A DNA stretch of 64,000 nt from Acidimicrobiales bacterium. GTDB lineage: Bacteria; Actinomycetota; Acidimicrobiia; Acidimicrobiales; AC-14. This document shows, in pieces, positions 4,952 through 57,778 of the stretch. The position numbers and the translations under genes were made by a program. The DNA is taken from the NCBI GenBank assembly GCA_035525375.1, contig DATLEI010000027.1:2976-66975 (forward strand). Reading direction: 5' to 3'. The notes under the pieces were generated by a model, which was not told where the DNA came from, searched no databases, and saw only the letters and a program-made list of their open reading frames with translations. Positions within the stretch are counted from its first letter, which is position 1. Each line of letters opens with the position of its first letter.

Positions 4952-5863
4952 CTGTACGAGCAGATCTCATCAAACAAGAGGCGGTCGGTACTCCTCGTAG
5001 GAGCGTTCGTGCTCGTGGTCGTCGCGGCCGCGTTTGCAGCTGACCTTCTCATCGGGTTTGGCTGGGTCGGGCTGGTGATCGCCCTCGTGGCAGTCGGGAT
5101 CGGCTCGTTCATCGCCTACTGGAAGTCCGACGCCATTGCCCTCCGGATGAGCTTGGCGAACCCGGCTGATCCCACGACCTACGCCCGCCTCCACAACCTC
5201 GTCGAGGGTCTCTGCATTGCCGCCGGCCTGCCGAAGCCGCGCGTCTACGTCATCAACGACCCCGCACCCAATGCCTTCGCGACCGGTCGCAACCCGAAGC
5301 ACGCCGCGATCGCCGTCACCACGGGTCTGCTGGAGAAGATGAACCGGGTCGAGCTCGAAGGAGTGCTGGCCCACGAGCTCAGTCACATCAAGAACTACGA
5401 CATCCTCGTTTCGACCCTGGCGGTCGTCTTCGTCGGCACCGTCGCCCTGCTGGCCGATTTCACCCTGCGCTTCATGTGGTGGGGTGGTCCGAGGGAGAGC
5501 GACTACGACAGCGACAGTGGGCCAGGGGCGACGGCCATATTCGCAATCGTCGGGCTCGTGCTCCTGTTGATACTTCCGATTGTTGCCAAGCTGATGCAGT
5601 TCGCGGTGAGTCGGAGGCGTGAAGCGCTAGCTGATTTCAGCGGCGTGCAGATGACCCGGTACCCACCCGGCCTTATTGCCGCCCTCGAAAAGCTCAAGGA
5701 CGACTCCACCGTCGTGCACTCATCGTCGCGCGCGACAGCGCACTTGTGGATCGAGGAGCCATTGGCTCGCAAGCCGGAAGAGGGTCGCCTAGCTTGGCTG
5801 AATCGGCTCTTCGAGACCCACCCTCCGCTGGAAGAGCGCATCCAGGCCTTGAAGGAGCTGTGA
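4952..5863 (+). CDS. htpX: M48 family zinc metalloprotease, HtpX-like
   Basis: HELSHIKNYD (HEXXH) and NAFATGRNP motifs. The ORF track starts at GTG 5009, but the in-frame upstream codons encode ..SSNKRRSVLLVGAFVL.., which matches the HtpX N-terminus and first TM helix. The only upstream candidates after the lemA TGA (4913-4915, same frame) are CTG 4952 and ATC 4964. The stop is certain; the 5' end is uncertain (4952, 4964 or 5009). Confidence 0.85.
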   Translation: MYEQISSNKRRSVLLVGAFVLVVVAAAFAADLLIGFGWVGLVIALVAVGIGSFIAYWKSDAIALRMSLANPADPTTYARLHNLVEGLCIAAGLPKPRVYVINDPAPNAFATGRNPKHAAIAVTTGLLEKMNRVELEGVLAHELSHIKNYDILVSTLAVVFVGTVALLADFTLRFMWWGGPRESDYDSDSGPGATAIFAIVGLVLLLILPIVAKLMQFAVSRRREALADFSGVQMTRYPPGLIAALEKLKDDSTVVHSSSRATAHLWIEEPLARKPEEGRLAWLNRLFETHPPLEERIQALKEL

Positions 5864-6912
5864 TGAAGATGCCCCTCAGGTTCGTTCGCGGACGGACGCT
5901 CCTCATCCTTGCCGTGATCGTCGCCCTCGCCGCCGGCGCGTGCTCCTCGGACTCGAGCGCCGCCAAACTCGCAGCCCCGACAACAACGACACTCCCGCCG
6001 GTGTTCCCATTGACCGGCAAGCCGGTCTCCGACCCAGCGGCCGCGGCCCGCCCGGCAACCACAGTAAAGATCGACAACATCGCCGTCGCCCGTCCCCAAG
6101 CGGGCATCGACAAGGCCGACATCGTCTTCGAGGAGTTCACCGAGGGCATCACCCGCTTTGTCGTTGTCTTCCAATCGACGACCGCCGACAGTGTCGGGCC
6201 GGTTCGATCCGTTCGGCCTGCCGACCCCACGATCGTGACGCCGTTCGGTGGCGTACTCGCCTTCTCCGGCGGCGCGCCGGCCATCGTCGAGCTCGCGAAG
6301 GCGTCGCCGTTGACGATTGTCGATGAGAACAGTGCCGACGTCATGAAGCGAAGGTCGGGACGATCGGCGCCGCACAACCTCTACACCTCGACCGATGGAT
6401 TGCTGTCGAAGGCACCTCCGGGCGCGCCGGCGCCGCCGACCTTTGCCAACTTTTTGCGCCCGGGGCAGTCCTTCGGGGGCGCCGGGGCCGTTCCCATTAC
6501 GAACCTCAGTGTGGTGCCGGCCCCGTCGTTGAAGGCCGATTACGAGTGGGACGCGGCGTCGAGTGGCTGGAAGCGGGCGACCGACGGTAGAGCGCACGCG
6601 CTCGAAGGCGGCGGGCAGATAGCGCCGGCGAACGTCATCATCCAGTTCACGCCGTACTCGGTGTTCCCGCCCGATCCCAAGGTGCAGTTTCCCGAGGTCG
6701 TCGGGACGGGTGAGGCGTGGGTCTTCGCCAGCGGTCAGATGGTGAAGGGTCGCTGGACCAAGTCTGCTGCGGGCACGATGACGACCTTTACCGACACGGC
6801 CGGCGCGCCGATCGTGCTCCCGCCGGGTCAGACATGGGTTCATTTCGTCGCACCCGACGCGCCGGTCACACCCACCGGTCCCGCGCCGGCACCCGCCCCC
6901 GCCGCGCCGTAG
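5863..6912 (+). CDS. DUF3048 domain-containing (YerB-like) putative lipoprotein
   Basis: The C-terminal part of ORF 5746-6912 is the real gene. ATG 5863 shares one base with the htpX TGA (TGATG). The signal peptide MKMPLRFVRGRTLLILAVIVALAAGAC is followed by PLTG...ARPATTVKIDNIAVARPQAGIDKADIVFEEFTEGITRFVVVF, typical of DUF3048. Confidence 0.75.
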   Translation: MKMPLRFVRGRTLLILAVIVALAAGACSSDSSAAKLAAPTTTTLPPVFPLTGKPVSDPAAAARPATTVKIDNIAVARPQAGIDKADIVFEEFTEGITRFVVVFQSTTADSVGPVRSVRPADPTIVTPFGGVLAFSGGAPAIVELAKASPLTIVDENSADVMKRRSGRSAPHNLYTSTDGLLSKAPPGAPAPPTFANFLRPGQSFGGAGAVPITNLSVVPAPSLKADYEWDAASSGWKRATDGRAHALEGGGQIAPANVIIQFTPYSVFPPDPKVQFPEVVGTGEAWVFASGQMVKGRWTKSAAGTMTTFTDTAGAPIVLPPGQTWVHFVAPDAPVTPTGPAPAPAPAAP

Positions 6913-6966
6913 CCCGGTTCGGTTACTCCGCCAGTCTTCGAGGGCGACCCGGGTACGATTACTGAC

Positions 6967-7857
6967 GTGAGTGAGATACGGCGCGAAACCGGTACCGAGG
7001 CCGTCAAGCGCGGACTGGCCGAGATGCTGAGTGGCGGCGTGATCATGGATGTCGTCAACGCGGAGCAAGCGTCGCTGGCTGAGGACGCTGGCGCGGTGGC
7101 CGTCATGGCCCTCGAGCGGGTACCCGCCGACATCCGGCGCGACGGTGGCGTCGCCCGCATGAGCGACCCGACCATGATCGAACAGATCAAAAGTGCGGTC
7201 ACGATTCCCGTCATGGCCAAGGCGCGCATCGGTCATTTCGTCGAAGCCCAGATACTCGAGGCGCTCGGCGTCGACTATGTCGACGAGAGCGAGGTGCTGA
7301 CCCCCGCGGACGAGGCGCACCACATCGACAAGTGGGCCTTCACCGTCCCCTTCGTGTGCGGGGCCACAAACCTCGGCGAGGCGCTCCGCCGGGTCTCGGA
7401 GGGTGCTGCGATGATCCGGTCCAAGGGGGAGGCGGGCACGGGCAACATCGTGGAGGCCGTGCGCCACCTCCGCTCGATTCTGGGCGACATCCGCAAGGTC
7501 ACTCAGGCCGACGCTGCCGAACGATTCGCCTGGGCCAAGCAGCTACAGGCGCCGATCTCGCTCGTCACCGAGGTCGCCGACACCGGGCGCCTGCCGGTTC
7601 CGTTGTTCTGTGCTGGAGGCATCGCCACCCCGGCCGACGCCGCCCTCGTCATGCAGCTCGGGGCCGAAGCCGTTTTCGTCGGCTCGGGAATCTTCAAGAG
7701 CGCCGATCCCGAGGCTCGGGCCAAAGCCATCGTCGAGGCCACGGCGCACTTCGACGATCCTCACATCCTCGTCAAGGTCAGCCGGGCGCTGGGCGAACCG
7801 ATGCCTGGCGAGGAGATCGCCGGCCTGGGAACCCGTCTGGCCGACCGGGGCTGGTAG
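6967..7857 (+). CDS. pdxS: Pyridoxal 5'-phosphate synthase lyase subunit PdxS
   Basis: ORF track 296 aa. [23 protein letters not shown]...[22 protein letters not shown]...[15 protein letters not shown] is near-invariant PdxS sequence. Confidence 0.97.
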
Positions 7858-7886
7858 GTCGCACAAGGTGCCCCCAGGTGTCCGGG

Positions 7887-8456
7887 ATGAAAGTCGGCGT
7901 GCTCGCACTCCAGGGAGCCGCTCAGCGCCACGCTGAGTCACTTGCGGCCCTCGGCGCCCACCCTGTGCTGGTGCGGCGTCCAGAAGACCTCTCGGACGTC
8001 GATGCGCTCGTGTTGCCCGGCGGCGAGTCGACGACGATGTCCCGACTCCTCACGACCTCCGGCTTGTTCGAACCCATTGCCGAGCGTCTGACCGGTGGCG
8101 TACCCGTCTTCGGCACGTGCGCCGGCATGATTCTGCTGGCGACTGAGATCCTCGACGGCCGCAAGGATCAGCGCTCGTTCGGGACTGTCGACATCTCGGT
8201 TCGCCGCAACGGTTTCGGGCGCCAGATCGACTCCTTCCAGGTCGCCATAGCCATTTCAGGACTTCCCGGCGACGCTTTTCCGGCCACCTTCATCCGGGCC
8301 CCCGTCGTCGACCGCGCCGGGCCCGGCGTCGAGGTACTGGCTGAGGTCGACGGTCGGCCCGTGCTGTGCCGCATGGGTCCGGCGTTGGTGAGCGCCTTCC
8401 ATCCCGAACTCTCCGGCGACCTCCGCCTGCACCAACGATTCCTCAGCGAAGCCTGA
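7887..8456 (+). CDS. pdxT: Pyridoxal 5'-phosphate synthase glutaminase subunit PdxT
   Basis: Only the 3' part of ORF 7332-8456 is real. ATG 7887 gives MKVGVLALQGAAQRHAESL...LVLPGGESTTM...FGTCAGMILLA (catalytic Cys) ...FHPEL. Confidence 0.95.
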   Translation: MKVGVLALQGAAQRHAESLAALGAHPVLVRRPEDLSDVDALVLPGGESTTMSRLLTTSGLFEPIAERLTGGVPVFGTCAGMILLATEILDGRKDQRSFGTVDISVRRNGFGRQIDSFQVAIAISGLPGDAFPATFIRAPVVDRAGPGVEVLAEVDGRPVLCRMGPALVSAFHPELSGDLRLHQRFLSEA

Positions 8457-8471
8457 GCAAGGAGCGAAGCG

Positions 8472-9221: not shown

Positions 9222-9331
9222 AGGTACTCCGCCACGAATCGTGTGTCCGACCGAGGTGGCAGGGAGTACGACTGGGCGAAATAGGTCAGTTGACCGATGT
9301 TTTCGGGAATCGGTGCCGCGATTATCCGATC

Positions 9332-9958: not shown

Positions 9959-10035
9959 CGCATCGGCGAGGCAAACAGGTAGGAGGCGGCCAGCATCCGC
10001 CCCTTGTTCCGGGCCGCTTGGTAGCGTAGGAACGC

Positions 10036-10539
10036 TTGTTCGTACTTGGGATCGATCCTGGGCTCTCTCGCTGTGGGTACGGCTGCATCAGCCGTGCGGG
10101 CGCTTCGACGCGGGTTCATGCGGTTGGTGTTCTAACCACGCCGCCCTCGGAGCCGCTGCCGCAGCGGCTCGGGGCCCTGCAGACGGATCTCACCGCTTTG
10201 ATCGCCGATGTGCAGCCTGACGTGGTTGCCGTGGAGCGGTTGTTCTTTCAGGTCAATGTTCGTACGGCCATGTCGGTTGGGCAGGCCAGCGGGCTGGTGC
10301 TTGCCGCTGCCGCGCGCGCCGGGTGCGAGGTCGTCCAATACACCCCGAATGCGGTCAAGCAAGCTGTTGCCGGCTACGGCGCCGCCACCAAGGAGCAGGT
10401 GCAGCGCATGGTCGCCTCGCTCTTGGGGTTGGATGAGCCGCCGCAACCCCCTGACGCCGCTGATGCACTGGCGCTTGCGCTGTGTCATCTGGCGATGGCC
10501 CCGATGGCTGCCCGGGTGCAGGCGGCGGTGAAGCGATGA
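10036..10539 (+). CDS. ruvC: Crossover junction endodeoxyribonuclease RuvC
   Basis: ORF track 167 aa, TTG start. The sequence MFVLGIDPGLSRCGYG...VAVERLFF...YTPNAVKQAVAGYG matches RuvC. Confidence 0.93.
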   Translation: MFVLGIDPGLSRCGYGCISRAGASTRVHAVGVLTTPPSEPLPQRLGALQTDLTALIADVQPDVVAVERLFFQVNVRTAMSVGQASGLVLAAAARAGCEVVQYTPNAVKQAVAGYGAATKEQVQRMVASLLGLDEPPQPPDAADALALALCHLAMAPMAARVQAAVKR

Positions 10540-12175: not shown

Positions 12176-12241
12176 TTCGCAGCCGCTCGGCCCCCCCGGG
12201 GTCGGCGCGATAGCCTCAACCCAGCCCTAACCGGCCCCACG

Positions 12242-12724: not shown

Positions 12725-12726
12725 TC

Positions 12727-15411: not shown

Positions 15412-16566
15412 ATGGACGACAACGAGATACGAGATGCCCTCGGGAAGGTCGCGCCCGCGCCGCCTCCCGCGACCAACGACTTCGAGGCGATTCTTGCGCG
15501 CGCCAAGCGGGGGCGGGCCCAATGGCTTGGACTTGCGTTGGTTGTGGCACTTGTCGCCGGGCCGGCCGCAGGGTTGCTGGTCGGGCTGAATATCGACGAC
15601 GGGAAGAACCCGGTGACAGTCGCGTCCGGCAATGACCAGGGCAGCCGGCGTGATGCGGCGGTCGCGCCGGAAACCAGCACGGCATCGGGTTCGGCCTCGG
15701 CCGTCGCCGGGAGCGCAGGGGGCTTCTTTGGTTCCGAGAAGCTGACTCCGCTGTTCAAGCGGACGACCGCTGATGGCATCGCCATACGGGCCTACCGCTC
15801 TGACATGGACGTGGCTGCCCTCGATCAGCGCGCTGGCCTCGACCAGAGCGTAGTTATCGACTGCGCCGCAGACGCGCCGTGCCCTCTACCGGCCAAGCCC
15901 GAACTGCCTGACGAGTGCCTACCAACCGCGATGCTGCGCGCCGAGCTCTCGAACGACGCCGCGGTCGAACCCGGGTACATGAGCGTCAACAAGCTCACCG
16001 CCGACCAGTCGATGGCGCTGACCCAATCGGGATATTTCGGGGTCTCCGAAGGATCGCCGGCCGCCTGGACAGGCGTTCACACGAGCGACGCCGTCTCGAA
16101 GGTGCGAGTGACGTTCGCCGACGGTGCGGTTGATGAGATGGCACCCGTCGAGGGTTACTCGGTGCTGGCGCACCAGATCGCACCTCCGCCCCAGCCCCAG
16201 CCCCAGCCCCAGCCGGCCCCGGCCCCGCAGCCCGCGCCGTCGGACACGCCCAATGCCGCTTCCCCCTCGGACGCGACCCAAGCCTCGCCTCCGGTAGATC
16301 CGGAGGAGTTCCGGAAGGCGACGCTGCCCGGAGGAACGGTTGAGGCTCTCGACGCGTCCGGCGCGGTGATGGCGACGACTTCACTGACCGACGCAGGAGC
16401 TCCAGTCGCTTCCTGCATGGTCGCACCGCCCGCGCCCGGTCCTTTCCCCATACCGGCTCCCGACCAAGTGCCCGCCGGTGGTGGTGTCGTCCCAGGAGAA
16501 CGTCCGGCGGCGACGATCGAGCCTTTCCCGGCCGCGCCGGCCCCTCCCGTCACGACGGCGTCCTGA
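15412..16566 (+). CDS. Single-pass membrane protein with a proline-rich extracytoplasmic region, unknown function
   Basis: ORF track 384 aa. It has a short cytoplasmic N-terminus, one TM (WLGLALVVALVAGPAAGLLVGL), a domain of about 200 aa, then PPPQPQPQPQPAPAPQPAP and further Pro/Ala-rich sequence. It sits immediately upstream (12-nt gap) of an ECF sigma gene. Confidence 0.6.
   Translation: MDDNEIRDALGKVAPAPPPATNDFEAILARAKRGRAQWLGLALVVALVAGPAAGLLVGLNIDDGKNPVTVASGNDQGSRRDAAVAPETSTASGSASAVAGSAGGFFGSEKLTPLFKRTTADGIAIRAYRSDMDVAALDQRAGLDQSVVIDCAADAPCPLPAKPELPDECLPTAMLRAELSNDAAVEPGYMSVNKLTADQSMALTQSGYFGVSEGSPAAWTGVHTSDAVSKVRVTFADGAVDEMAPVEGYSVLAHQIAPPPQPQPQPQPAPAPQPAPSDTPNAASPSDATQASPPVDPEEFRKATLPGGTVEALDASGAVMATTSLTDAGAPVASCMVAPPAPGPFPIPAPDQVPAGGGVVPGERPAATIEPFPAAPAPPVTTAS
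16189..16212 (+). repeat. Hexanucleotide tandem repeat (CCCCAG)x4 with degenerate units to about 16230, encoding (PQ)n
   Basis: Read directly from the sequence: ccccag ccccag ccccag ccccag ccggcc ccggcc ccgcag. It is in frame inside the membrane-protein CDS. Confidence 0.85.
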
Positions 16567-26120: not shown

Positions 26121-28763
26121 ATGACCACCTCTGCCGCCGACCTGCGCCGCGCCTTCACCGACTTCTTCGTCGCGCGCGCCCACACTCTGGTTCCGTCGTC
26201 GGGGCTGATCCCACACCACCCGCTGGCGCCCCTGTTCACCAATGCTGGCATGAACCAGTTTCTGCCCTACCTCCTCGGCGAAGAGCCGCCACCTTGGCCT
26301 CGCGCCACATCGGTGCAGAAGTGTGTTCGGATTCGTGGCAAGCACGACGACATCGAGATCATTGGGCGCACGTCGCGCCACCTCACCTTCTTCGAGATGC
26401 TCGGCAATTTCAGTTTCGGCGACTACTTCAAAGAGTCGGCAATTCCCTGGCACTGGGAACTGCTCACCGAGGTGCTGGGGATCGAAGCTGATCGCCTGTG
26501 GGTCACCGTGTACCTCGACGATGACGAGACCGCTGAGATCTGGCGCGATGCGGTCGGTGTTCCCCCCGACCGCATCCAGCGCTTGGGCGAGGACAACTTC
26601 TGGGAGATGGCGGAGACCGGCCCGTGCGGTCCGTCGTCGGAGATCTTCTTCGACAAGGGTCCGGAACACGGCGAGGACGGCGGCCCACTGCACGGTGGTG
26701 AGGAGAGGTTCGTCGAGATTGCCAACCTGGTCTTCCTGCAGTACGAGCGCCAGCGGGGCGGCGCGCTCGAGCCTCTCCCGCGACGCAACATCGACACCGG
26801 GTCCGGACTCGACCGAATTCTCCCCGTGATGCAGGGGGTCGACTCGGTCTTCGACACCGACGTCCTGAAGCCGGTTGTCGACGCTGCCGCTCGAGTGACC
26901 GGGCGCCGGTACGGCGACGATGAAGTCGCCGATGTTGCGCTGCGGATCCTTGCTGACCACGCCCGGTCCATGACCTTCCTCGTCTCCGACGGCGTCTTCC
27001 CGTCCAACGAAGACCGGGGCTACGTGCTGCGGCGCATCATCCGGCGCGCCGTGCGCCACGCCTTCGCCCTCGGGGTGGAACGGGAGGTATCGCCGACGCT
27101 CGTCGAGGCCACTGTTGACGTCATGGGCGACGCCTACCCCGAGCTGGTCAAGAACCGTGACTTCGTGCTCGGTGTCGTCACCCGGGAGGAAGCCAAGTTC
27201 CGTCAGACACTCCGTTCAGGGTCGGCGATCCTCGACGAGGAGCTCACAGGAGTACGCGCCGGTAACAGTTCCGGAGGGGCCGCGGGCGCTGACCGGCCCA
27301 CCCTCTCCGGGAGCGTGGCGTTCCGCCTCCATGACACCTTCGGATTCCCGCTCGAACTCACCCTAGAGGTCGCCGGCGAACACGGCGTAGAGGTGGACCG
27401 CGCCGGCTTCGACGAGGAGATGGAGACCCAACGCCGGCGCGCGCGCGCCGCGCAGGCGGGTGGGGGAGCCGAGACCGATCCGGCGCGCGCCGCTTCCTAC
27501 CGCGACCTCCTGGAGCAATTCGGTCCCACGGAGTTCACCGGTTACGTCGAGTCGGAGAGCCAGGCGCGAGTAGTCGCCGTTTTGGAGCAGGCGGGCAACA
27601 TTGAGATCTTCCTCGACCGCACGCCCTTCTACGCCGAGTCCGGGGGCCAGCTCGGCGATACCGGCATCGTCCACACCGACACGGGAACCGCACAGGTCGT
27701 GGACACCACCTACGCCCTTCCCGGCCTCCGCCGCCACCTGGCGGTCGTCACCCAGGGTCACATCACGACCGGCCAGGTTGCGACCGCCAGCATCGACGCC
27801 GACCGCCGCGAGGCGATCAGGCGGAACCACACTGGCACCCACATCCTGCACTGGGCACTGCGGGAAGTGTTGGGCGAGCACGTCAAGCAGGCGGGCTCAC
27901 TCGTCGCTCCTGACCGGCTCCGCTTCGACTTCAGCCATTACGGCCCGGTGACGCCCGAGGAGCTTGTCGCGGTCGAGGACGCGGCCAATGCCGAGGTGAT
28001 TGCCAATCAACCGGTCAGGGCGTACGAGACGACCCAAGAGGAGGCGTTGCGGCTCGGAGCCATCGCATTCTTCGGTGAGAAGTACGGCGATGTCGTACGC
28101 GTCGTTGAAGCCGGCCGTCGTTCGGTCGAGCTGTGCGGCGGCACCCACGTCGGCGCCCTCGGCACGATCGGCCCGATCAAGATCGTCTCTGAGGGATCGA
28201 TCGGATCGAACCTACGTCGGATCGAGGCCGTCACGGGAACCGGCAGCCTCCAACGCATTCGGGAGGAGGAGCAGATCCTCGGACGCGCCGCCACCCTGTT
28301 GCGGGTGGCGCCCCCTGAGGTGCCAGAGCGAGTCGAGCATGTGCTCGGCGAGAACCGGGAACTGGCCGATCGGTTGAAGGCCCTTCGCCGCCAGCAGGCG
28401 AGCGATACCGCCAGATCTCTTGTCGGCGCCGCTACCGACGGCGTCATCGTCGCTCGGGTCGACGGCACCTCGCGCCAGGATCTCCAAGACCTCGCGGTCG
28501 CGGTACGAGACCAGCCCGACGTGCGGGCGGTCGTGCTCGGCAGCGTCCCTGAAGCAGGGGGCGTGACGCTCGTAGCTGCAGTCGCGAAGGGCAGTGGTCT
28601 GGTGGCCTCCGACCTCATCGCTGACGCTGCTCGCACCGTTGGCGGGGGTGGCGGCAAGAGCCCCGAAATCGCCGTTGCCGGTGGACGTGACCCGAGTCGT
28701 CTCGACGAGGCCCTCGATCAGGCGCGGCGCGCCGCCAGTGCCGCGTCAGCTGACGACGCATGA
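26121..28763 (+). CDS. alaS: Alanine--tRNA ligase
   Basis: ORF track 880 aa. FTNAGMNQF, HLTFFEMLGNFSFGDYFK, the editing domain HTGTHILHWALREVLG...GGTHV and a C-terminal DHHA1-like region are present. Confidence 0.97.
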   Translation: MTTSAADLRRAFTDFFVARAHTLVPSSGLIPHHPLAPLFTNAGMNQFLPYLLGEEPPPWPRATSVQKCVRIRGKHDDIEIIGRTSRHLTFFEMLGNFSFGDYFKESAIPWHWELLTEVLGIEADRLWVTVYLDDDETAEIWRDAVGVPPDRIQRLGEDNFWEMAETGPCGPSSEIFFDKGPEHGEDGGPLHGGEERFVEIANLVFLQYERQRGGALEPLPRRNIDTGSGLDRILPVMQGVDSVFDTDVLKPVVDAAARVTGRRYGDDEVADVALRILADHARSMTFLVSDGVFPSNEDRGYVLRRIIRRAVRHAFALGVEREVSPTLVEATVDVMGDAYPELVKNRDFVLGVVTREEAKFRQTLRSGSAILDEELTGVRAGNSSGGAAGADRPTLSGSVAFRLHDTFGFPLELTLEVAGEHGVEVDRAGFDEEMETQRRRARAAQAGGGAETDPARAASYRDLLEQFGPTEFTGYVESESQARVVAVLEQAGNIEIFLDRTPFYAESGGQLGDTGIVHTDTGTAQVVDTTYALPGLRRHLAVVTQGHITTGQVATASIDADRREAIRRNHTGTHILHWALREVLGEHVKQAGSLVAPDRLRFDFSHYGPVTPEELVAVEDAANAEVIANQPVRAYETTQEEALRLGAIAFFGEKYGDVVRVVEAGRRSVELCGGTHVGALGTIGPIKIVSEGSIGSNLRRIEAVTGTGSLQRIREEEQILGRAATLLRVAPPEVPERVEHVLGENRELADRLKALRRQQASDTARSLVGAATDGVIVARVDGTSRQDLQDLAVAVRDQPDVRAVVLGSVPEAGGVTLVAAVAKGSGLVASDLIADAARTVGGGGGKSPEIAVAGGRDPSRLDEALDQARRAASAASADDA

Positions 28764-29182: not shown

Positions 29183-30255
29183 GCGTGGACACCGCCTTTG
29201 ACATTGAACACAACGACATGCCACCGGAGCGCTCTCGGCGCCCGCGTTGGGTGCTCGTCCTCCTCGGCATCCTCGCCGTGGCGGTCATTTTCGGGGCACT
29301 GGTCGTGTCGTGGGTGCGGGGCCAGATCAACCCTTCCGGTCCTCCGGGCAAAGAGGTGCAGATCACGGTGACCAAGGGAATGTCGACGGATTCTCTGGCT
29401 TCCTTGCTCGAGCGCGAGGGAGTCATCAAGAACGCGACCGTGTTCACGTACTACGCCCGTTTCAACGGCGCCGACGCCATCAAGGCCGGCGACTTCACCT
29501 TCCGCGCCAACTCCGATCTGGGTGAGGTCGTCAAGGTGCTCGATGCCGGGCCCAAGGTCGAGATCGACAGGATCACCATCCCCGAGGGCCTGACCCTGAA
29601 GGAGACCGCGGCCAAAGTGGCCACCCTTCCAGGACGTACGGCCGAGCGCTTTCTCGCCCTTGCCACCGACGGCACCATCCGGTCGCGTTATCAGCGGGCA
29701 GGCTCGAACAACCTCGAGGGTTATCTGATGCCCGAGACCTACTTCATCGATCGCAAGGACGACGAGGCCCGGATCTTGACTCGAATGGTGTCCGCGTTCG
29801 ACGACACTGCCGCACAACTCGACATCGCTGGCGGCGCGGCGAAGTTGGGTGTCACCCCCGACCAGGTCGTTGTCGTTGCCTCGCTCGTCGAACGCGAAGC
29901 CCGCGTTGACGAGGACAGAGCCAAGATCGCCCGGGTGATCTACAACCGCCTGGCCAGGAAGATGCCGTTGCAGATCGACGCGACCGTTCAGTACGCCCTC
30001 GGCGAGCAGAAGGCTCGTCTGCTCAACAGAGACCTGGAGATCAACTCGCCATACAACACCTACAAGGTGAGCGGGCTACCGCCAGGACCAATCGCCTCGC
30101 CCGGTCGCGAGTCGTTGGAGGCGGCCCTCAACCCCGCCGCCGGCAACTGGCTCTACTACGTGCTGGCCGACGCCAATGGCCGGCACAACTTCGCCGAGAC
30201 GTCGGCGCAGTTCGAGAAGTTCAAGGCCGAGGCCAAGGCGAAGGGCCTTCTCTGA
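29179..30255 (+). CDS. mltG: Endolytic murein transglycosylase MltG (YceG)
   Basis: ORF track 358 aa, ATGA overlap with ruvX. It has an N-terminal TM, then the YceG core (ASLVEREA...IARVIYNRL...LQIDATVQYAL...SPYNTYKVSGLPPGPIASPG). Confidence 0.93.
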   Translation: MSVDTAFDIEHNDMPPERSRRPRWVLVLLGILAVAVIFGALVVSWVRGQINPSGPPGKEVQITVTKGMSTDSLASLLEREGVIKNATVFTYYARFNGADAIKAGDFTFRANSDLGEVVKVLDAGPKVEIDRITIPEGLTLKETAAKVATLPGRTAERFLALATDGTIRSRYQRAGSNNLEGYLMPETYFIDRKDDEARILTRMVSAFDDTAAQLDIAGGAAKLGVTPDQVVVVASLVEREARVDEDRAKIARVIYNRLARKMPLQIDATVQYALGEQKARLLNRDLEINSPYNTYKVSGLPPGPIASPGRESLEAALNPAAGNWLYYVLADANGRHNFAETSAQFEKFKAEAKAKGLL

Positions 30256-31115
30256 GATTTCAGTGGGACGGTCTTGGGCGGACGGAGAGTGGCAATCGTC
30301 TCGTCGCGGTCATCGGTAGTCCGATCAGCCATTCCTTGTCACCGACAATCTTCAACGCTGCCTTCGAGTCGCTGTCGCTGGACTTGGAATACGTCGCCGT
30401 CGAGGTACCTCCCGGGCGGGCCGAAGAAGCCATCGACGAGGCCCGCGCCCTTGGCGTTATGGGCCTCTCCGTGACGATGCCGCACAAGGCGTCCGTGCTG
30501 CCTGCGCTGGACCGGCTCTCGGCCGCTGCGGAAGCCCTGGGCGCGGTGAACACAGTCCTGCGCGTCGGTGACGAACTGGTCGGCGACAACACCGACGGCC
30601 CCGGGTTCCTCGACGCCCTGGCGGCTGATGAGGGGTTCGATCCAGCCGGACGGCGCTGCGTTGTCTTTGGCGCCGGCGGCGCGGCCCGCGCCGTCATCCT
30701 GGCGCTCGCCGCCGCCGGCGCGGCTGAAGTCTCGGTCGTCAATCGGAACGCCGAGCACGCGGAGGTTGCCGTGCTGCTTGCCGGAGCCGTGGGACGTATC
30801 GGTGAGCCAGCCGACGTCAAGGGTGCCGACCTGATCGTCAACGCAACGCCAATCGGCATGCAAGGCCAACCCGCGGAACCGCTCTTCGAGACGTCGATAC
30901 TGGCCGAAGGCCAGCTCGTGGCCGATCTCGTCTATCACCCGTCGATCACGCCGCTCGTAGCCGAAGCCCGATCGAGAGGGGCTCGGGCCGTCAACGGCCT
31001 CGGCATGCTGATCCACCAGGCAGGACACTCGTTTCAGCTGTGGACGGGCCAGCCGCCCCCGCTGTCGGTGATGTCAGCGGCCGCAGTCTCCGCACTACGC
31101 CGCGACGGCCGTTGA
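30252..31115 (+). CDS. aroE: Shikimate dehydrogenase
   Basis: The ORF track starts at TTG 30336 (MSPTIFNAAF...). The same frame upstream encodes NRLVAVIGSPISHSL, which completes the conserved GSPIxHSxSP substrate motif. No ATG/GTG/TTG lies upstream in frame. CTG 30252 forms a CTGA overlap with the mltG stop (30253-30255). The stop is certain and the start is inferred. Confidence 0.88.
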   Translation: MRFQWDGLGRTESGNRLVAVIGSPISHSLSPTIFNAAFESLSLDLEYVAVEVPPGRAEEAIDEARALGVMGLSVTMPHKASVLPALDRLSAAAEALGAVNTVLRVGDELVGDNTDGPGFLDALAADEGFDPAGRRCVVFGAGGAARAVILALAAAGAAEVSVVNRNAEHAEVAVLLAGAVGRIGEPADVKGADLIVNATPIGMQGQPAEPLFETSILAEGQLVADLVYHPSITPLVAEARSRGARAVNGLGMLIHQAGHSFQLWTGQPPPLSVMSAAAVSALRRDGR

Positions 31116-41478: not shown

Positions 41479-42769
41479 TTCGATTGTCGTCATCAGAGGC
41501 GGCACGGTCGTCGATGCAACCGGCTCGCGCCGGGCCGACGTCCTGATCCGTGACGACCGCATCGTCGCCGTCGAAAGCGCGGTTGATCCACCCGGGGGGG
41601 CCACAGTGCTCGACGCCGGCGGCTGCATCGTCGCTCCCGGTCTCGTGGATCTCCATGCCCATCTGCGTCAACCCGGCGCCGAGCAAGCGGAAACGGTCGA
41701 GTCCGGCTCACGCGCTGCTGCCCTCGGCGGGTACACGGCGGTAGTGGCGATGCCCAACACCAATCCGGCCATCGACTCGGCGGCGGTGGTGCGCGAGGTA
41801 CAGGAACTGGCGGTGACGGCGCTCTGCGACGTCCGCGTCGCCGGCGCGATCACTGTTGGGCGCAAAGGCGAGGCGTTGTCGCCGCTGGGGGAGATGGCCG
41901 ATCTCGGCGTCAAGCTGTTCACCGACGACGGCACTGGCGTGCAGGACTCCCGTCTCATGCGCCGTGCCCTCGAATACGCGTCGGCGCTGGGCGTCACGTT
42001 GGCCCAGCACTGCGAAGATCTTTCGCTCGCCGCCGGTGGTCAGATGAACGAAGGCGCCTGGTCGAGCCGCCTCGGACTGCCGGGCGCGCCGGCGCAGGCG
42101 GAAGAGGTCATGCTCGCCAGAGATCTTGCGCTCCTTCGCGTGACCGCCGGGATGGGCGCTCGTATGCATTTTCAGCACCTGAGCACCGAGGGCTCGATGG
42201 ACATGGTCAGGGCGGCGCGCGCCGAAGGACTTCCGGTGACGGCTGAAGCGGCGCCGCATCACTTCACCCTGACCGACGAACGGGTCCAGTCCTACGACCC
42301 CGTGTTCAAGGTCAACCCGCCGTTACGCAGCGCCCGTGACGTCGAAGCGGTCAAGGTCGCACTTCGGGCCGGAACGCTTGACGCCATCGCAACCGACCAC
42401 GCCCCTCATCCGCAGGAAGACAAGGAACGGCCTTTCGACCAGGCGGCTCCGGGGATGGTGGGCCTCGAGACCGCGCTGGCTCTGGCGATCACTGAACTCG
42501 ATTTGCCCATCGAGCAAGTCCTCGCCCTCATGAGTTGGCAACCAGCACGAATCGCGGGCCTGGAGGCGACGCAAGGCAACAGTTTTATCGAGGGGTCCAG
42601 CGCGAACGTCTGCATCTTCAATGCGCACGAAACCTGGCTGGTCGACGCTGCGACGTTGGCGAGTAGGAGTAAGAACACTCCCTACGACGGCATGAAGCTC
42701 ACGGGCCGCGTGCGCCACACCGTGTACGAGGGTGAGATCGTCGTGAAGGACGCCGAGGCGCAGAGATGA
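41471..42769 (+). CDS. pyrC: Dihydroorotase
   Basis: ORF track 432 aa, 8-nt overlap with pyr[14 protein letters not shown], and ATDHAPH...K carboxylated-Lys-type amidohydrolase motifs are present. Confidence 0.94.
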
Positions 42770-43863: not shown

Positions 43864-47204
<3,341 letters not shown>

Positions 47205-47213
47205 GCGATCACG

Positions 47214-48143
47214 CTGCCTGACGCCGTTGATCTGTCGGCGCGAGTCGGCGCCCTCACGCTGCCGAACCCTGTCCTGACTGCGGCCGGGACCTCAGGGCAC
47301 GGCGCGGAACTGTCAGCGTTCTTCGATCTGTCGTCGTTGGGCGCCGTCGTCGTGAAGTCGATCTCGGCACAACCGTGGGGCGGGAACGCAGCGCCGCGAG
47401 TACACGAGGCTGACTTTGGCATGCTCAACTCGGTCGGGCTCCAGAACCCAGGCGTGGGGGATTGGCTCGCCGAGGAGGTGCCCGCTCTCGTTACTTCCGG
47501 CGCGCGCGTTGTCGCCTCGATCTGGGGGCGCGCCGTCGACGACTACGCGACTGTCGCATCCGCCCTTCGCGACGCGCCGGCGGCGGTGATCGCGGTTGAG
47601 GTCAACCTGAGCTGCCCAAACCTCGACGGTGGCCGTCACATGTTCGCCCACTCGACGTCAGCCACCAGCGAAGCCATCTCTGCCAGCCTCGGGTGTGGTC
47701 GTCCGGTGTGGGCGAAGCTGAGTCCGAATGTTGCCGACATCACCGAGATCGCCGGCGCGGCGATCTCCGCCGGTGCCAGCGCGCTCACCCTCGTCAACAC
47801 GGTGATGGGGATGGCGATCGACACCGAGACACGCCGCCCCATTCTCGGGGCAGGCACGGGGGGTCTAAGTGGACCTGCGATCCGCCCCGTCGCCGTTCGG
47901 GCGTTGCGCGAGTGCCATCTCGCGTTTCCCGACGTCTCGCTCGTCGGGGTCGGCGGAGTCAGCCGCGGTGAGCACGCGGTCGAGCTTCTGCTCGCCGGTG
48001 CCAGTGCCGTACAGGTCGGTACCGCCACCTTCGCCGATCCTCGCGCGCCGGCACGAGTCCTGGCCGAACTTCGGGACTGGTGTATCCGCCATGATGTCAC
48101 CGCCGTGTCTCAACTCGTGGGGAGTGTCTATGGAGCTTCGTGA
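47214..48143 (+). CDS. pyrD: Dihydroorotate dehydrogenase, class 1 (Cys catalytic base)
   Basis: The ORF track starts at TTG 47337. The same frame upstream, directly after the carB TAG at 47202-47204, encodes AITLPDAVDLSARVGALTLPNPVLTAAGTSGHGAELSAFFDLSS. This holds the conserved LxNPVxxAxGT N-terminal strand and loop. The only candidates are ATC 47208, CTG 47214 and CTG 47232. NLSCPN (Cys base) marks class 1. The stop is certain and the start is inferred. Confidence 0.87.
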   Translation: MPDAVDLSARVGALTLPNPVLTAAGTSGHGAELSAFFDLSSLGAVVVKSISAQPWGGNAAPRVHEADFGMLNSVGLQNPGVGDWLAEEVPALVTSGARVVASIWGRAVDDYATVASALRDAPAAVIAVEVNLSCPNLDGGRHMFAHSTSATSEAISASLGCGRPVWAKLSPNVADITEIAGAAISAGASALTLVNTVMGMAIDTETRRPILGAGTGGLSGPAIRPVAVRALRECHLAFPDVSLVGVGGVSRGEHAVELLLAGASAVQVGTATFADPRAPARVLAELRDWCIRHDVTAVSQLVGSVYGAS

Positions 48144-48865: not shown

Positions 48866-49189
48866 ATGCCGCTGCCTCCCACACTTTCTCCGGACGAGCG
48901 CCTGGCTGCGCTTGACAAAGCCGCCGCCGCTCGCCGCCAACGGGCCGAGCTCAAAGACAAGCTGAAGATCGGGTCCATCAATCTCAAGGAGCTGCTCGAC
49001 CAGAGCACTCGCGACGAGGTGGTGGGCAAGATGAAGGTGGTTGCCGTGCTCGAGTCCCTCCCCGGGGTGGGCAAGGTGCGGGCCCGTCGGCTGATGGAGG
49101 AGCTGCATATCAGCGAGGCCCGTCGCGTTCGGGGCCTCGGCGCTCAGCAGCGAGAAGCGCTTCTTCGGCAGTTCCCCGCGACGTCCTGA
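48866..49189 (+). CDS. mihF: Actinobacterial integration host factor MihF
   Basis: ORF track 48857 (GTG). ATG 48866 gives MPLPPTLSPDERLAALDKAAAARRQRAELKDKLK...LESLPGVGKVRARRLMEEL...RRVRGLG, closely resembling mycobacterial mIHF as I recall it. Confidence 0.9.
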   Translation: MPLPPTLSPDERLAALDKAAAARRQRAELKDKLKIGSINLKELLDQSTRDEVVGKMKVVAVLESLPGVGKVRARRLMEELHISEARRVRGLGAQQREALLRQFPATS

Positions 49190-49761
49190 GCAAGACGCCT
49201 TCTCGACCCCTCCTCTTTGTCATCGTCGGTCCATCCGGCGCCGGCAAGGGATCGATCGTCGCCGGTCTGTCGCGTCGCGTGCCCCAGCTCTGGTTGAGCC
49301 GATCCTGGACAACCCGCCCGCCGCGCGTCGGCGAAGCGGCCGACGCCTACAAATTCGTCGACCGCGACACCTTCCTTGCTCACGCTGATTCCGGCGGGTT
49401 CGTCGAGTCGGCCGAGGTCTTCGGGCATCTGTACGGAACGCCCATTCCCGACCCGCCGGTGGGAAACGACCTGCTGCTCGAAATCGACGTGCAGGGAGCA
49501 AACCAAGTTCGGACGTTGCATCCCGATGCCGTGGTGATCCTCATCGACGTCCCATCGCGTGCGGCTCAGGAGGAGCGCCTGCGGGCGCGAGGCGACGACG
49601 AAGCGCTGATCGCGCGCCGCTTGGCGCGCGCCGACGCCGAAGCTGAAGCGGGCAGAGCCCTCGCCGACTACGTCATCGTCAACGAAGACTTGGACCGGGC
49701 CATCGAGGAGTCGGCTGCTATCGTGGAGATGCACCGCAGCGTAGGTTCGCCTCCGAGCTGA
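49186..49761 (+). CDS. gmk: Guanylate kinase
   Basis: The ORF track starts at GTG 49279 ([19 protein letters not shown]...). The same frame upstream encodes [31 protein letters not shown], which contains the essential P-loop. No ATG/GTG/TTG lies upstream in frame. CTG 49186 forms a CTGA overlap with the mihF stop (49187-49189). This gives 191 aa, a family-typical length. Confidence 0.9.
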
Positions 49762-49792
49762 CCGCCTGATCAACCCGACTGGAGTTACCCAG

Positions 49793-54247: not shown

Positions 54248-54260
54248 GAGCATCAGCGCG

Positions 54261-54851
54261 ATGAAGCGATTGGTGGTCCTCCGCCACGGCGAGACCGAAT
54301 GGTCGGCGTCCGGCCGTCACACAGGCCGCAAGGACATACCCCTTACGTTCGAGGGGGAACGTAAGGCTCGCCTATTGGGTCAGCGGCTTGTGCATTTCGG
54401 GATCGAGCCGGTTCGGGTGCTGTCCAGTCCTCGCCAGCGAGCGCTGAAGACTGCGCTGCTTGCCGGTCTCGATCAGCACCGAATCGAGGCCACCGAGCTG
54501 CTTGCCGAGCTCGATTACGGCGAATACGAGGGGAGGACGACAGAAGAGATCCGGAGCGAAACTCCGTCGTGGAACCTCTTCAAAGACGGGTGTCCCGGCG
54601 GGGAGACGCTGGAGGCGGCGGGTGATCGAGCTGATGAGCTTCTCGCTGAGGTTGCTCCGGAGGACGGCGCCGGCGACGTCGCTCTGGTTGGGCACGGCCA
54701 TTTCTCCCGCATCCTTGCCGCTCGCTATCTGGGCCTCGACGCGTCATCGGCGTCCGGTTTTGCGCTGGACACCGCCAGCCTGTCGATCCTGGGCCACGAG
54801 CACGAGTGGCGCGCCGTGCTTCTCTGGAACCACGGAGCCGGCATCCGGTAA
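54261..54851 (+). CDS. Histidine phosphatase family protein (phosphoglycerate mutase-like)
   Basis: The 3' part of ORF 54153-54851. ATG 54261 gives MKRLVVLRHGETEWSASGRHTGRKDIPLT (RHGE catalytic motif) and a later GHGHF. Confidence 0.88.
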   Translation: MKRLVVLRHGETEWSASGRHTGRKDIPLTFEGERKARLLGQRLVHFGIEPVRVLSSPRQRALKTALLAGLDQHRIEATELLAELDYGEYEGRTTEEIRSETPSWNLFKDGCPGGETLEAAGDRADELLAEVAPEDGAGDVALVGHGHFSRILAARYLGLDASSASGFALDTASLSILGHEHEWRAVLLWNHGAGIR

Positions 54852-54870
54852 CGCCCGGTACTCTCGACCC

Positions 54871-55416
54871 GTGGCCCTGTTCGAGATCCGTACCTTCGGC
54901 GACCCGGTCCTGCGCCAGCGCGCGACCGAGATTACGACGCTTGATGCGAGCCTCGCTCAGCTGGCGGCCGACATGATCGACACGATGTACGACGCGCCGG
55001 GCGTCGGTTTGGCAGCTCCCCAGGTTGGCGTTCAGCGGCGAATGTTCGTCTATGACATCAACGACGACAATGGCCCGCACACAGTCATCAACCCGGTATT
55101 GATGGGCCATGAGGGCGAGCAGACATCGGAGGAAGGCTGCCTCTCTGTTCCGGGCCTGTCCTGGCCACTCACGCGCTATGAGAAGGTGCATCTCACCGGC
55201 GTCGACCTCGACGGCAAGGAGCTGTCGATCGATGCCGAAGGGCTGCTGGCGCGGTGTTTTCAGCACGAGGTCGATCACCTCGACGGGATGCTGCTGCTCG
55301 AACGACTCGACAGGAGAGATCGCAAAGGGGCCATGAAGGAGCTGCGCGGCCGCACCCTGGGATTCTCCGATCCGGCCGGAGATTCGCGAGCTCCGTCCGT
55401 CGGCCAGGGCACCTGA
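54871..55416 (+). CDS. def: Peptide deformylase
   Basis: The 3' part of ORF 54460-55416, starting at GTG 54871. The three deformylase motifs are GVGLAAPQVG, EGCLSVPG and QHEVDHLDG. Confidence 0.95.
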   Translation: MALFEIRTFGDPVLRQRATEITTLDASLAQLAADMIDTMYDAPGVGLAAPQVGVQRRMFVYDINDDNGPHTVINPVLMGHEGEQTSEEGCLSVPGLSWPLTRYEKVHLTGVDLDGKELSIDAEGLLARCFQHEVDHLDGMLLLERLDRRDRKGAMKELRGRTLGFSDPAGDSRAPSVGQGT

Positions 55417-55423
55417 GCCACGG

Positions 55424-56290
55424 GTGAAGCTGGCCTATCTCGGCTCCCCACAGGTGGCCGTCAATCCCCTGAAGGCGCTTGTCGCCGACGGTCACGAGGT
55501 CGCGCTCGTCGTGTCACAACCCGACCGTAAGCGAGGCCGCGGTGGGAACCTACTGCCGAGCCCGGTCAAGGCCGCCGCACTCGAGCTGGGCCTTACCGTC
55601 AGCGATCGAGTCGACGACGTCATCGATGTCGGTGCCGAGCTCGGCGTTGTCGTTGCCTTCGGCCGGCTCATCAAGCCTCATGTTCTGTCGGCGCTACCCA
55701 TGGTCAACCTGCATTTCTCGCTCCTGCCGAGATGGCGCGGCGCGGCTCCCGTCGAGCGCGCCATCCTCGCCGGCGACACGACGACCGGCGTGTGTTTAAT
55801 GGCGCTGGAAGAGGGACTCGACACCGGGCCGGTGTACGCGCGCGCAGAGACCCCAATCGACAGTGAGGACACGGCCGACCAACTGCGAAGCCGCCTCGAA
55901 GGCCTAGGTACGGCAATGCTCTTGCAGGCACTTCTCGAGGGGCTGCCGGAGCCCGAACCTCAAGTGGGGGAGCCCACGTACGCCGCGAAGCTTGCGCCGG
56001 GTGAACACGAGCTTGACTGGGGGCGTCCCGCCATCCATCTCCATCGGGTCATTCGCCTTGGCCGGGCGTGGACGACCTTCCGGGGGAAGCGGCTGAAGGT
56101 TCTGTTGGCCAGGCTCGTCGACGGGCCGGTCACGCTTGCCCCGGGCGCAATCGATCCCGTGACCTTGCAGGTGGGCGCCGGCGAGGGTGCTGTGGAGCTC
56201 GTGGAGGTGCAACCGGAAGGCAAGCCCGTGCAGGAGGCCTCTGCGTGGCGCAACGGTGCGCACTTGATCGCCGGTGATCGTCTGGGCTGA
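55424..56290 (+). CDS. fmt: Methionyl-tRNA formyltransferase
   Basis: ORF track 288 aa, GTG start. VVSQPDRKRGRG, NLHFSLLPRWRGAAPVERAI. Confidence 0.94.
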   Translation: MKLAYLGSPQVAVNPLKALVADGHEVALVVSQPDRKRGRGGNLLPSPVKAAALELGLTVSDRVDDVIDVGAELGVVVAFGRLIKPHVLSALPMVNLHFSLLPRWRGAAPVERAILAGDTTTGVCLMALEEGLDTGPVYARAETPIDSEDTADQLRSRLEGLGTAMLLQALLEGLPEPEPQVGEPTYAAKLAPGEHELDWGRPAIHLHRVIRLGRAWTTFRGKRLKVLLARLVDGPVTLAPGAIDPVTLQVGAGEGAVELVEVQPEGKPVQEASAWRNGAHLIAGDRLG

Positions 56291-56534
56291 TGGCAGGGTA
56301 CGGGCGTCGACTCGGGTAAGCTCTGCTCAATTCCGGATCGCCGCTTGGTGTGAACCCACAGGCTCGACGCGCACTCGGCTTATGCAGCATGAGAAGGCGT
56401 CATGGTCGGAGAACCGCGACATACCCGCGGAGAAGTGCCGTCTGGGCTCGCCGAGAGCCTCGACCGCATAGCAAGCATCGTCCTCACTGACTCGAATCTC
56501 GACGGGATTCTCCAGTATCTCGGCTGCTGCCGGC

Positions 56535-56744
56535 GTGCAACAAGCGCAGCTCGAGGAGGCCCTGACAACGCGCGACGTGATCGGACAGGCAAAGGGCATC
56601 TTGATGGTGCGCCAGTCGTGCAGCGCTGACGAGGCCATCGACGTCCTTCGCCGGGCTTCGCAGCGCGCCAACCGCAAGCTACGGGATATCGCCCAAGATC
56701 TCGTGGACGCGACGACAAGCGTGGAGGAAGACGAAGAGCCCTAG
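56535..56744 (+). CDS. ANTAR domain protein (stand-alone 69 aa, or the remnant of a GAF-ANTAR gene)
   Basis: ORF track 69 aa. LEEALTTRDVIGQAKGILMVRQSCSADEAIDVLRRASQRANRKLRDIAQDLV is a complete ANTAR domain. A GAF-like N-terminal helix lies upstream in a different frame (ORF 56402-56629). See findings. Confidence 0.6.
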   Translation: MQQAQLEEALTTRDVIGQAKGILMVRQSCSADEAIDVLRRASQRANRKLRDIAQDLVDATTSVEEDEEP

Positions 56745-56785
56745 CGCGCGAGGTGCCCCGGGGTGCCCTGGCCTAGGTTGGCCCC

Positions 56786-57778
56786 ATTCTTGCTCTCAGC
56801 GTCCTTGATCAGACACCGGTTCCCGAGGGCACGGATCCGGCTCAGGCCTTAGCGGACACGATCCGGCTCGCCCAGGCCGCCGACCGCTTGGGATACACCC
56901 GCTACTGGCTAGCTGAGCACCACAACACCCGGTCGTTGGCCGGTACGACTCCCGAGGTCATGGTCGCTGCAGTTGCGAGCGCCACGTCGCGTATTCGGGT
57001 CGGATCGGGCGGGGTGCTGTTGCCGTACCGCAACCCGATGATGGTGGCCGAAGCGTTTCGGATGCTGCATTCACTCTTCCCGGGCCGCATCGACCTTGGT
57101 GTCGGTCGGGCGGCAGGAACGGACCCGGCGACCGAGGAGCTGCTACGCCGCGGACCGGTTGAACTGGGCGAAGAGTGGTTCCCGCAGCAGGTCGCGGACC
57201 TCGTTGGTTACGTTCACGACAACGAGACGATGCCTGCCGGTTCTGGCGCGCCTGCGGTCTGGCTGCTCGGATCGAGCAGCCAAAGCAGTGGCTGCGCCGC
57301 CTATCTCGGTCTGGCCTTTTCGTTTGCCCACTTCATCAGTCCCACCTACGGGCCTCAAATCGTGAATGCCTACCGGCGCGGCTTTCAACGTTCGGAGGTG
57401 CTTGATGAGCCTCGGGTGAGCGTCGCTGTGTCGGTGGTCTGCGCAGACACCGACGAAGAGGCCCGGCGCGTGGCCTCAACGGCTGATCTCTGGCGACTGG
57501 GTCCGGAGGGTGCGGAACGGGCCCCCATCGTGCCCAGTGCTGATGCTGCCGCTGTAGTCGCCACCCTCACTGACCTACAACGCGAACGGTTGGCTCAAGC
57601 GAAGTCGAAGGTCATTGTCGGTGCCCCCGACGTGGTCAGGGCGAAGATGACCACGCTCGCCGATGAGTTCGGGATCAATGAACTCATCGTGCTGACGGTG
57701 TGCCATGACCCGAGGGCGCGCCAACGCTCCTACGAGCTCCTGGCAGAGGCCTTCAGTCTCAGCTCTGGGGCGCGCTGA
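56786..57778 (+). CDS. LLM class (luciferase-like) flavin-dependent oxidoreductase
   Basis: The ORF track starts at TTG 56888 (MGYTRYWLAEHHNT...). The same frame upstream, open only from the TAG at 56774-56776, encodes VGPILALSVLDQTPVPEGTDPAQALADTIRLAQAADR. This matches the conserved N-terminus of this family (..LSLLD..PIPEG......LA...E.LGY.RYW.AEHH). The only recognised initiator there is ATT 56786. The stop is certain and the start is inferred. Confidence 0.85.
   Translation: MLALSVLDQTPVPEGTDPAQALADTIRLAQAADRLGYTRYWLAEHHNTRSLAGTTPEVMVAAVASATSRIRVGSGGVLLPYRNPMMVAEAFRMLHSLFPGRIDLGVGRAAGTDPATEELLRRGPVELGEEWFPQQVADLVGYVHDNETMPAGSGAPAVWLLGSSSQSSGCAAYLGLAFSFAHFISPTYGPQIVNAYRRGFQRSEVLDEPRVSVAVSVVCADTDEEARRVASTADLWRLGPEGAERAPIVPSADAAAVVATLTDLQRERLAQAKSKVIVGAPDVVRAKMTTLADEFGINELIVLTVCHDPRARQRSYELLAEAFSLSSGAR

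Follow-up and report, generated by a model that had tools for sequence, protein, structure and literature searches.

Where does translation begin in a gene whose frame offers no ATG, GTG or TTG at the N-terminus expected for its protein family? Five genes in a 64-kb stretch of an Acidimicrobiales metagenome-assembled genome (MAG) raise this question (GCA_035525375.1, contig DATLEI010000027.1; the whole 64,000-nt stretch is called the window below). In htpX, aroE, pyrD, gmk and a gene for an MsnO8-type LLM oxidoreductase, the full-length family models start 19-43 codons before the first in-frame ATG, GTG or TTG (canonical codons hereafter). Reading the five frames codon by codon, we found zero canonical codons from the upstream in-frame stop to the first canonical codon listed in Table 1. 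Pfam domain starts precede that codon in four of the genes and NCBIfam full-length models do so in all five, which bears out a previous sequence-only reading of this DNA that these genes lack a canonical start at the family N-terminus. The near-cognate codons it had proposed instead (CTG 4952, ATC 4964, CTG 30252, ATC 47208, CTG 47214, CTG 47232, CTG 49186 and ATT 56786) are all found in place by direct reading. Our comparisons suggest that translation of these genes likely does start at near-cognate codons, aided at stop-start junctions by termination-reinitiation.

The count refers to this one window, in which a codon-usage map gives 66 gene-like open reading frames (ORFs), the same number as in the sequence-only reading. 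Well-annotated bacterial genomes have ATG, GTG or TTG at 99.95% of their starts and a non-canonical codon at ~0.05% (Hecht et al., bioRxiv 10.1101/063800). Finding at least five non-canonical starts among 66 has a probability of 8e-9 with a background of 0.1% and of 5e-4 even with 1%, so the earlier remark that the rate is far above normal holds. None of the remaining ORFs clearly has the same problem by the codon-usage map and an NCBIfam check. A codon-usage change-point analysis flagged nine further ORFs with apparent coding sequence ahead of the first canonical start. Seven of them (PdxS, YajC, a sigma factor, CarB, RpoZ, MetK and RibBA), as well as AlaS, which we added, have normal canonical starts by NCBIfam. 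The last two, a short ANTAR ORF and a minus-strand gene with an ambiguous CTGA junction, have no family match.

Table 1. Positions in the window of the five genes, their upstream stop codons and associated elements. Frame openings (after the in-frame stop) and first canonical codons are by direct reading. SD, Shine-Dalgarno.
Feature	Position	Strand	Frame opening	First canonical codon	Remarks
htpX (M48 zinc protease)	4952..5863	+	4916	GTG 5009	303 codons; proposed start CTG 4952-4954
lemA stop TGA	4913..4915	+			in frame with htpX, 36 nt upstream of CTG 4952
aroE (shikimate dehydrogenase)	30252..31115	+	29910	TTG 30336	287 codons; proposed start CTG 30252-30254
mltG/yceG stop TGA	30253-30255	+			overlaps the aroE CTG as CTGA (30252-30255)
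AAGGG SD-like element	30241..30245	+			6 nt upstream of the aroE CTG, inside conserved mltG K-G codons
pyrD (class-1 dihydroorotate dehydrogenase)	47208..48143	+	47205	TTG 47337	proposed start ATC 47208 or CTG 47214
carB stop TAG	47202-47204	+			in frame with pyrD; ATC 47208 is 3 nt after, CTG 47214 9 nt after
gmk (guanylate kinase)	49186..49761	+	48916	GTG 49279	191 codons; proposed start CTG 49186-49188
mihF stop TGA	49187-49189	+			overlaps the gmk CTG as CTGA (49186-49189)
ANTAR gene	56535-56744	+			ANTAR domain only; upstream of the LLM gene
ancestral LLM TTG, now in the +1 frame	56778..56852	+			opens a 24-codon dead-end ORF; from alignment with relative L145
MsnO8-family LLM oxidoreductase	56786..57778	+	56777	TTG 56888	330 codons; sole near-cognate candidate ATT 56786-56788

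Which codon opens htpX is answered most directly by its orthologues. Position 2 of the HtpX model NF003425 aligns to the Leu of CTG 4952. Among the 120 closest HtpX homologues (70-100% identity), 79 start exactly at the codon orthologous to CTG 4952; these starts are written as 46 M, 15 V and 18 L, with V and L being the literal translation of GTG and TTG starts. Of the other calls, 36 are truncated and 3 are extended with Leu at the CTG-orthologous position; ~30% of the set lacks a canonical start call. We took the htpX DNA of relatives with three truncated calls and one extended call (L144) from NCBI and JGI assemblies. At the orthologous position, CTG TAC GAG/GAC CAG ATC is found in L140 (90% identity), L141/142 (85%), L143 (80%) and L144 (77%), to be set beside the orthologous protein start M/V/L-YEQISSNKRRS. 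The CTG is common to five lineages, and four of the five have no upstream in-frame canonical start. Conservation has its edge at this codon: identity reaches 75-91% over the 57 nt that begin with the CTG, versus 11-58% over the preceding 36 nt, and codons 2-19 show 5, 2 and 12 variable columns at the three codon positions. The downstream codon GTG 5009 has AGGAG ahead of it at good spacing, yet the corresponding codon in L140 is GTT. Because the orthologue starts, the CTG in the relatives' DNA, the conservation edge and the non-conserved GTG 5009 all point the same way, we place the htpX start at CTG 4952 with high confidence; of the two codons offered by the sequence-only reading, CTG 4952 is retained and ATC 4964 is not. 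Across Acidimicrobiales, the htpX start codon varies in its first base, with all four NTG codons found at one position.

The aroE start lies at a gene junction. Position 2 of the AroE model TIGR00507 aligns to residue 17 counted from CTG 30252, and nearly all of the eight closest AroE homologues (77-100% identity) have truncated calls that begin within or directly at the GSPIxHSxSP motif. The CTGA overlap with the mltG/yceG stop is kept in 7/7 related loci, representing five lineages from JGI, NCBI and Logan assemblies. In these relatives, 12-299 in-frame codons upstream of the CTG are free of canonical starts, and the AAGGG located 6 nt before the CTG is also found in related loci. Between close relatives, differences in the 19 codons from the CTG to ATC 30312 are distributed over the three codon positions as [0,1,4], [1,2,7] and [1,1,10]. 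Indels in the extension comprise whole codons only (three codons lost in L138), and a short F-x-W/S-D motif is shared across the clade. Since the segment between CTG 30252 and ATC 30312 evolves as coding sequence, it must be translated, with a start at or before its first codon. AroE orthologues at ~65% identity have ordinary M-starts, therefore the CTG state is clade-specific.

A second CTGA junction opens gmk. Position 2 of the Gmk model TIGR03263 aligns to residue 9 counted from CTG 49186, and solved guanylate kinases align from residue 6-10 of the same count. Therefore, a start at GTG 49279, the first canonical codon, would remove strand 1 and the P-loop GPSGAGKG upstream of it. The closest genome in the species-representative collection (L001, a MAG labelled Actinomycetota bacterium KAP bin118) encodes a Gmk of 75% identity; its gene, too, overlaps the mihF stop as CTGA and lacks a canonical start. 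In L039 (54% Gmk identity), only a CTG is present, 2 nt past a mihF TAG. The gmk CTG is thus found in three lineages, in two of them as CTGA over the mihF stop. By these alignments, the gmk start is non-canonical whether CTG 49186 or ATC 49222 is chosen; CTG 49186 is the sole candidate common to all three lineages and yields an N-terminus of normal length. At the same junction, more distant Acidimicrobiia carry ATG or GTG, or show CTG-ATG in a TGATG overlap. This distribution suggests an evolutionary route in which CTG and ATG ancestrally flanked the TGA, with the CTG retained and the ATG lost in the window clade.

For pyrD, position 4 of the model NF005574 aligns to residue 9 of the frame from 47205, the Asp of a DLS motif. 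PyrD relatives at 50-66% identity have ATG, GTG or TTG 1-9 codons ahead of DLS, typically overlapping or abutting the carB stop. In a control set drawn from many phyla, a canonical pyrD start lies near DLS in 115/115 loci, and the window is the sole exception. CTG 47232, the most downstream of the candidates, lies past the Asp of DLS; in 112/115 control loci, the nearest canonical start is no further downstream than this. The pyrD regions of the window and L001 (82% PyrD identity) differ by 4 nt in length directly past the carB stop. The final codons of carB are overlapped in another frame by a 17-codon GTG-initiated ORF (47168-47221, + strand), whose TGA stop falls between CTG 47214 and CTG 47232; in L001, the ATG equivalent to its start is in frame with pyrD. 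This small ORF may have arisen by chance from the Glu-Trp codons of CarB, or it may serve in coupling. We considered the upstream ATG of L001 as the ancestral pyrD start and rejected it, as it is probably a by-product of the same Glu-Trp codons.

The LLM gene lost its start in a different way. Position 1 of TIGR03558 aligns to residue 7 of the frame from 56777, three codons past ATT 56786. The relative L145 (75% identity) has an in-frame TTG at the gene start (TTG GCG CCC ATC GTC GCC CTG AGT GTT CTC GAC). The window matches it nearly base for base minus one G (GGCGCCC to GGCCCC), by which TTG 56778 is shifted to the +1 frame. L146/147 have no in-frame canonical start either, and carry an ATC two codons ahead of SVLD. 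In the Logan assembly of SRR8554898, which we compared by protein and gene coordinates, an identical LLM protein is called from ATG 56960. Between the end of the ANTAR gene and this ATG, the window and the Logan assembly both have 216 nt; therefore, the deletion cannot be put down to a single assembler. The neighbouring ANTAR gene is 88% identical to residues 160-218 of a 228-aa GAF-ANTAR protein of L146, and its GAF part has no match anywhere in the window. This suggests local deletion or decay adjoining the frameshifted start. LLM is the weakest of the five cases, and the gene may be freshly damaged.

Taken together, the near-cognate codon occupies the start position of the orthologues exactly in htpX and falls within the normal N-terminal length range in gmk, pyrD, aroE and LLM. 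Relatives likewise lack a canonical start in frame in 7/7 loci for aroE, 5/6 for htpX and 3/3 for gmk. The non-canonical codon itself is kept in independent relatives for htpX, aroE and gmk, not for pyrD; for LLM, the ATT of the window and the ATC of relatives are at different codons. On this comparative evidence, htpX, aroE and gmk have evolutionarily conserved CTG starts, pyrD is a private loss and LLM is a frameshift-derived loss.

Could the start codons have been replaced, or indels added, by sequencing or assembly errors in the MAG? In favour of such errors, the genome is a MAG assembled by a third party, the LLM gene lost one base within a run rich in G and C, and the pyrD case is known from one assembly. 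Base errors had been named beforehand as something to exclude through independent assemblies, and identical CTGs of htpX, aroE and gmk do occur in independent assemblies of relatives from other samples. In addition, Logan SRR8554898 repeats the LLM spacing together with the same truncated gene call. Such errors are a very improbable account of the five genes.

Only slightly less improbable is that translation starts from the downstream canonical codons to give truncated proteins, or that some of the genes are pseudogenes. The AGGAG before GTG 5009 would suit a downstream htpX start, and the LLM locus, with its TTG lost by frameshift and a neighbour that lost a domain, would suit a pseudogene. 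Truncation, however, would cost Gmk its P-loop, AroE its GSPIxHSxSP substrate loop, HtpX half of its first transmembrane segment, and PyrD its first strands and the NPV..AAGT segment. The extensions of aroE and htpX are under purifying selection, and GTG 5009 is not conserved. All five ORFs are intact apart from the start, the remaining 330 codons of LLM scoring 365 bits against TIGR03558, and the pyr, aro and rib operons around them are complete.

The in-frame stops upstream of htpX and pyrD bring up recoding, either as readthrough into LemA-HtpX and CarB-PyrD fusions or as frameshifting into aroE, gmk and LLM. The lemA stop lies 12 codons ahead of htpX and the carB stop 1-3 codons ahead of pyrD, each in the frame of the gene that follows. 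This frame relation is not conserved: the lemA-htpX and carB-pyrD frames differ in L140 and L001, and we rejected the fusions on this ground. In addition, a periplasmic MltG fused to a cytoplasmic AroE would, we infer, make no topological sense, and no Rfam element or known recoding signal was found in the window. We consider recoding scarcely credible.

How do public annotations treat these genes? The record of the source MAG from the NCBI Prokaryotic Genome Annotation Pipeline (PGAP) starts PyrD from CTG 47232, LLM from ATT 56786, AroE from ATC 30312 and Gmk from ATC 49222, the last named 'hypothetical protein' (HUQ62590.1, 179 aa); HtpX is truncated, from GTG 5009. Non-canonical starts of four of the five genes are already implicit in GenBank. 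The expectation of the sequence-only reading that standard callers would emit truncated models is therefore partly right: it fits the JGI and Logan calls, which use ATG, GTG and TTG only, and fails for PGAP in four of five genes. With translation table 11, PGAP agrees with our reading in giving CTG, ATC or ATT starts to these four genes, and differs in some of the positions. ATC 30312 falls inside coding-like sequence of aroE, ATC 49222 cuts the first beta-strand of Gmk, and htpX is left truncated; the PGAP starts of aroE and gmk are probably misplaced. Against TIGR03263, whose cut-off is 160.45, even the 191-aa Gmk from CTG reaches only 147 bits, therefore the choice of start is not the sole reason for the missing Gmk name.

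How might such weak codons suffice? If initiation is near-cognate as we propose, the ordinary initiator tRNA, carrying formylmethionine (fMet), would read CTG in htpX, aroE and gmk, CTG or ATC in pyrD and ATT in LLM. CUG would pair with the initiator anticodon with a first-position mismatch, like GUG and UUG. At the tight junctions, which are the CTGA overlaps of aroE and gmk and the pyrD candidates 3-9 nt past the carB stop, terminating ribosomes already on site would re-initiate. The high local ribosome concentration there could make a weak codon enough and an SD dispensable. In the short spacers of htpX (36 nt) and LLM (~40 nt), a modest SD-like element stands ahead of the near-cognate codon. 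The energies of the SD-anti-SD duplex are -6.0 kcal/mol for aroE, -4.9 for htpX and -4.4 for LLM, with a median of -5.9 for canonical starts of the window; by the same measure, gmk and pyrD show no SD-like pairing, therefore they fit re-initiation better than de novo initiation. In E. coli, re-initiation drops steeply with distance from the stop (PMC10666635); it needs formylated initiator tRNA and initiation factor 2 (IF2), and excess IF3 lowers it (PMC2268962).

The genome offers many such junctions. About 16 of the ~55 same-strand junctions of the window are 4-nt overlaps with canonical starts (for example 10536-10539, 28760-28763 and 42766-42769), roughly 10 as ATGA, 4 as GTGA and 2 as TTGA, therefore tight translational coupling is pervasive in this genome. 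Neighbouring genes in the same loci interchange ATG, GTG and TTG between relatives. As start turnover in the neighbours is ordinary, CTG behaves as a fourth NTG variant.

Is the cluster a property of the lineage, or do five of the rare near-cognate starts that every bacterium has happen to lie together, tolerated as the enzymes are needed in small amounts? The second view draws on the single 64-kb window and on the pyrD and LLM losses being private to this genome. Against it stand the low probability of five such starts even at a 1% background, the share of close HtpX sequences without a canonical start call, and the recurrence of non-canonical sites in several genes across related MAGs: GCA_030155865 carries the htpX CTG and the LLM ATC, GCA_030155925 the aroE CTG and JALZBN01 the gmk CTG. 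A chance cluster is unlikely in our judgement, and weak start codons seem to be tolerated in this lineage at a much higher rate than in textbook bacteria. More tentatively, and with clearly less confidence than in the near-cognate starts themselves, we put forward as possible that a soil Acidimicrobiales clade has relaxed start selection. In such a clade, CUG, and to a lesser degree AUY, would be routine for several percent of genes, including the essential gmk, and would concentrate at CUGA overlaps, where re-initiating ribosomes may be less proofread by IF3.

Several points weigh against near-cognate initiation and its extension to the clade. In E. coli, CUG, AUU, AUC and AUA initiate at ~1-2% of AUG (bioRxiv 10.1101/063800), and in Mycobacterium tuberculosis, itself a high-G+C actinobacterium, Ribo-RET found no enrichment of CTG, ATT or ATC at initiating ribosomes (PMC9094748). 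None of the five genes has an extended SD that would offset a weak codon; their percentiles among internal CTG/ATY controls range from 0.16 to 0.96. In the aroE CTGA, the C doubles as the third base of the final codon of mltG, so that codon bias alone could keep it (by our estimate, a chance of ~1 in 4). The pyrD case rests on this one assembly, and the LLM locus, with its frameshifting deletion and an ANTAR neighbour without GAF, may be decaying. Finally, the cluster is known from 64 kb and could be a local fluctuation.

Two more in-frame CTGA junctions in the window could be CTG starts as well, one at 16563-16566 (+) ahead of a SigE-family sigma factor and one at 63483-63486 (-) ahead of a gene without NCBIfam match. 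A canonical GTG lies 5-10 codons downstream of each of the junctions at 16563 and 63486, which makes the true start ambiguous. The window has a G+C content of 66% and a typically actinobacterial set of housekeeping genes: lemA-htpX, pdxS, yajC, alaS-ruvX-mltG-aroE-aroC, carB-pyrD, a presumed pyrF, mihF-gmk-rpoZ-coaBC-metK and rib genes. It contains no tRNA genes and no Rfam families, and an exact-sequence look-up of its LemA gave no match.

If the pattern is true genome-wide, this would be a natural lineage whose start-codon fidelity is visibly looser than that of E. coli, Staphylococcus aureus or M. tuberculosis. It would provide a comparative handle on the share of IF3, initiator tRNA and re-initiation in start selection. 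A simple evolutionary route also suggests itself, in which a neighbouring CTG can take over once the ATG of a TGATG or ATGA junction is lost. There would also be a practical consequence: with relaxed selection, callers restricted to ATG, GTG and TTG would assign wrong starts to a considerable fraction of the genes in each of its MAGs. In JGI and Logan records, the nearest homologues of AroE, HtpX and LLM are cut within conserved motifs, which affects the functions and pathways deduced from this group's MAGs. Our literature search gave no paper on CTG starts in Acidimicrobiia and none that treats CTGA overlaps, the sole match using the string in an unrelated context. Clustering of near-cognate starts and their conservation across relatives were not found in searchable papers, and CTGA is not mentioned in two surveys of coupling, which cover only NTG starts and ATT at -5 overlaps.

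Known non-canonical starts offer two comparisons. The confirmed exceptions in E. coli are infC and pcnB only (bioRxiv 10.1101/063800), and genome-wide mapping of initiation in S. aureus found a handful of non-canonical starts, each with an extended SD (PMC13009471). The AUU of E. coli infC and pcnB, the AUA of S. aureus infC and ccpN and the AUU of cvfC1 resemble the codons described here: each is a one-base variant of AUG at the start of the orthologues, is conserved and is presumably read by fMet-tRNA. Those starts are few per genome and usually serve to attenuate regulators, the S. aureus ones being backed by the extended SD. In contrast, the 64 kb of the window contain five; they belong to housekeeping enzymes, are mostly CUG and not AUH, and lack an extended SD. 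The other comparison is termination-reinitiation at ATGA, GTGA and TGATG junctions. aroE and gmk share its 4-nt overlap geometry, conserved in relatives; the starts of that family are ATG, GTG or TTG, whereas the overlapping start is CTG in both genes here. The kind of feature is already known, and what is new is its density, its housekeeping targets and the conserved CTGA junctions.

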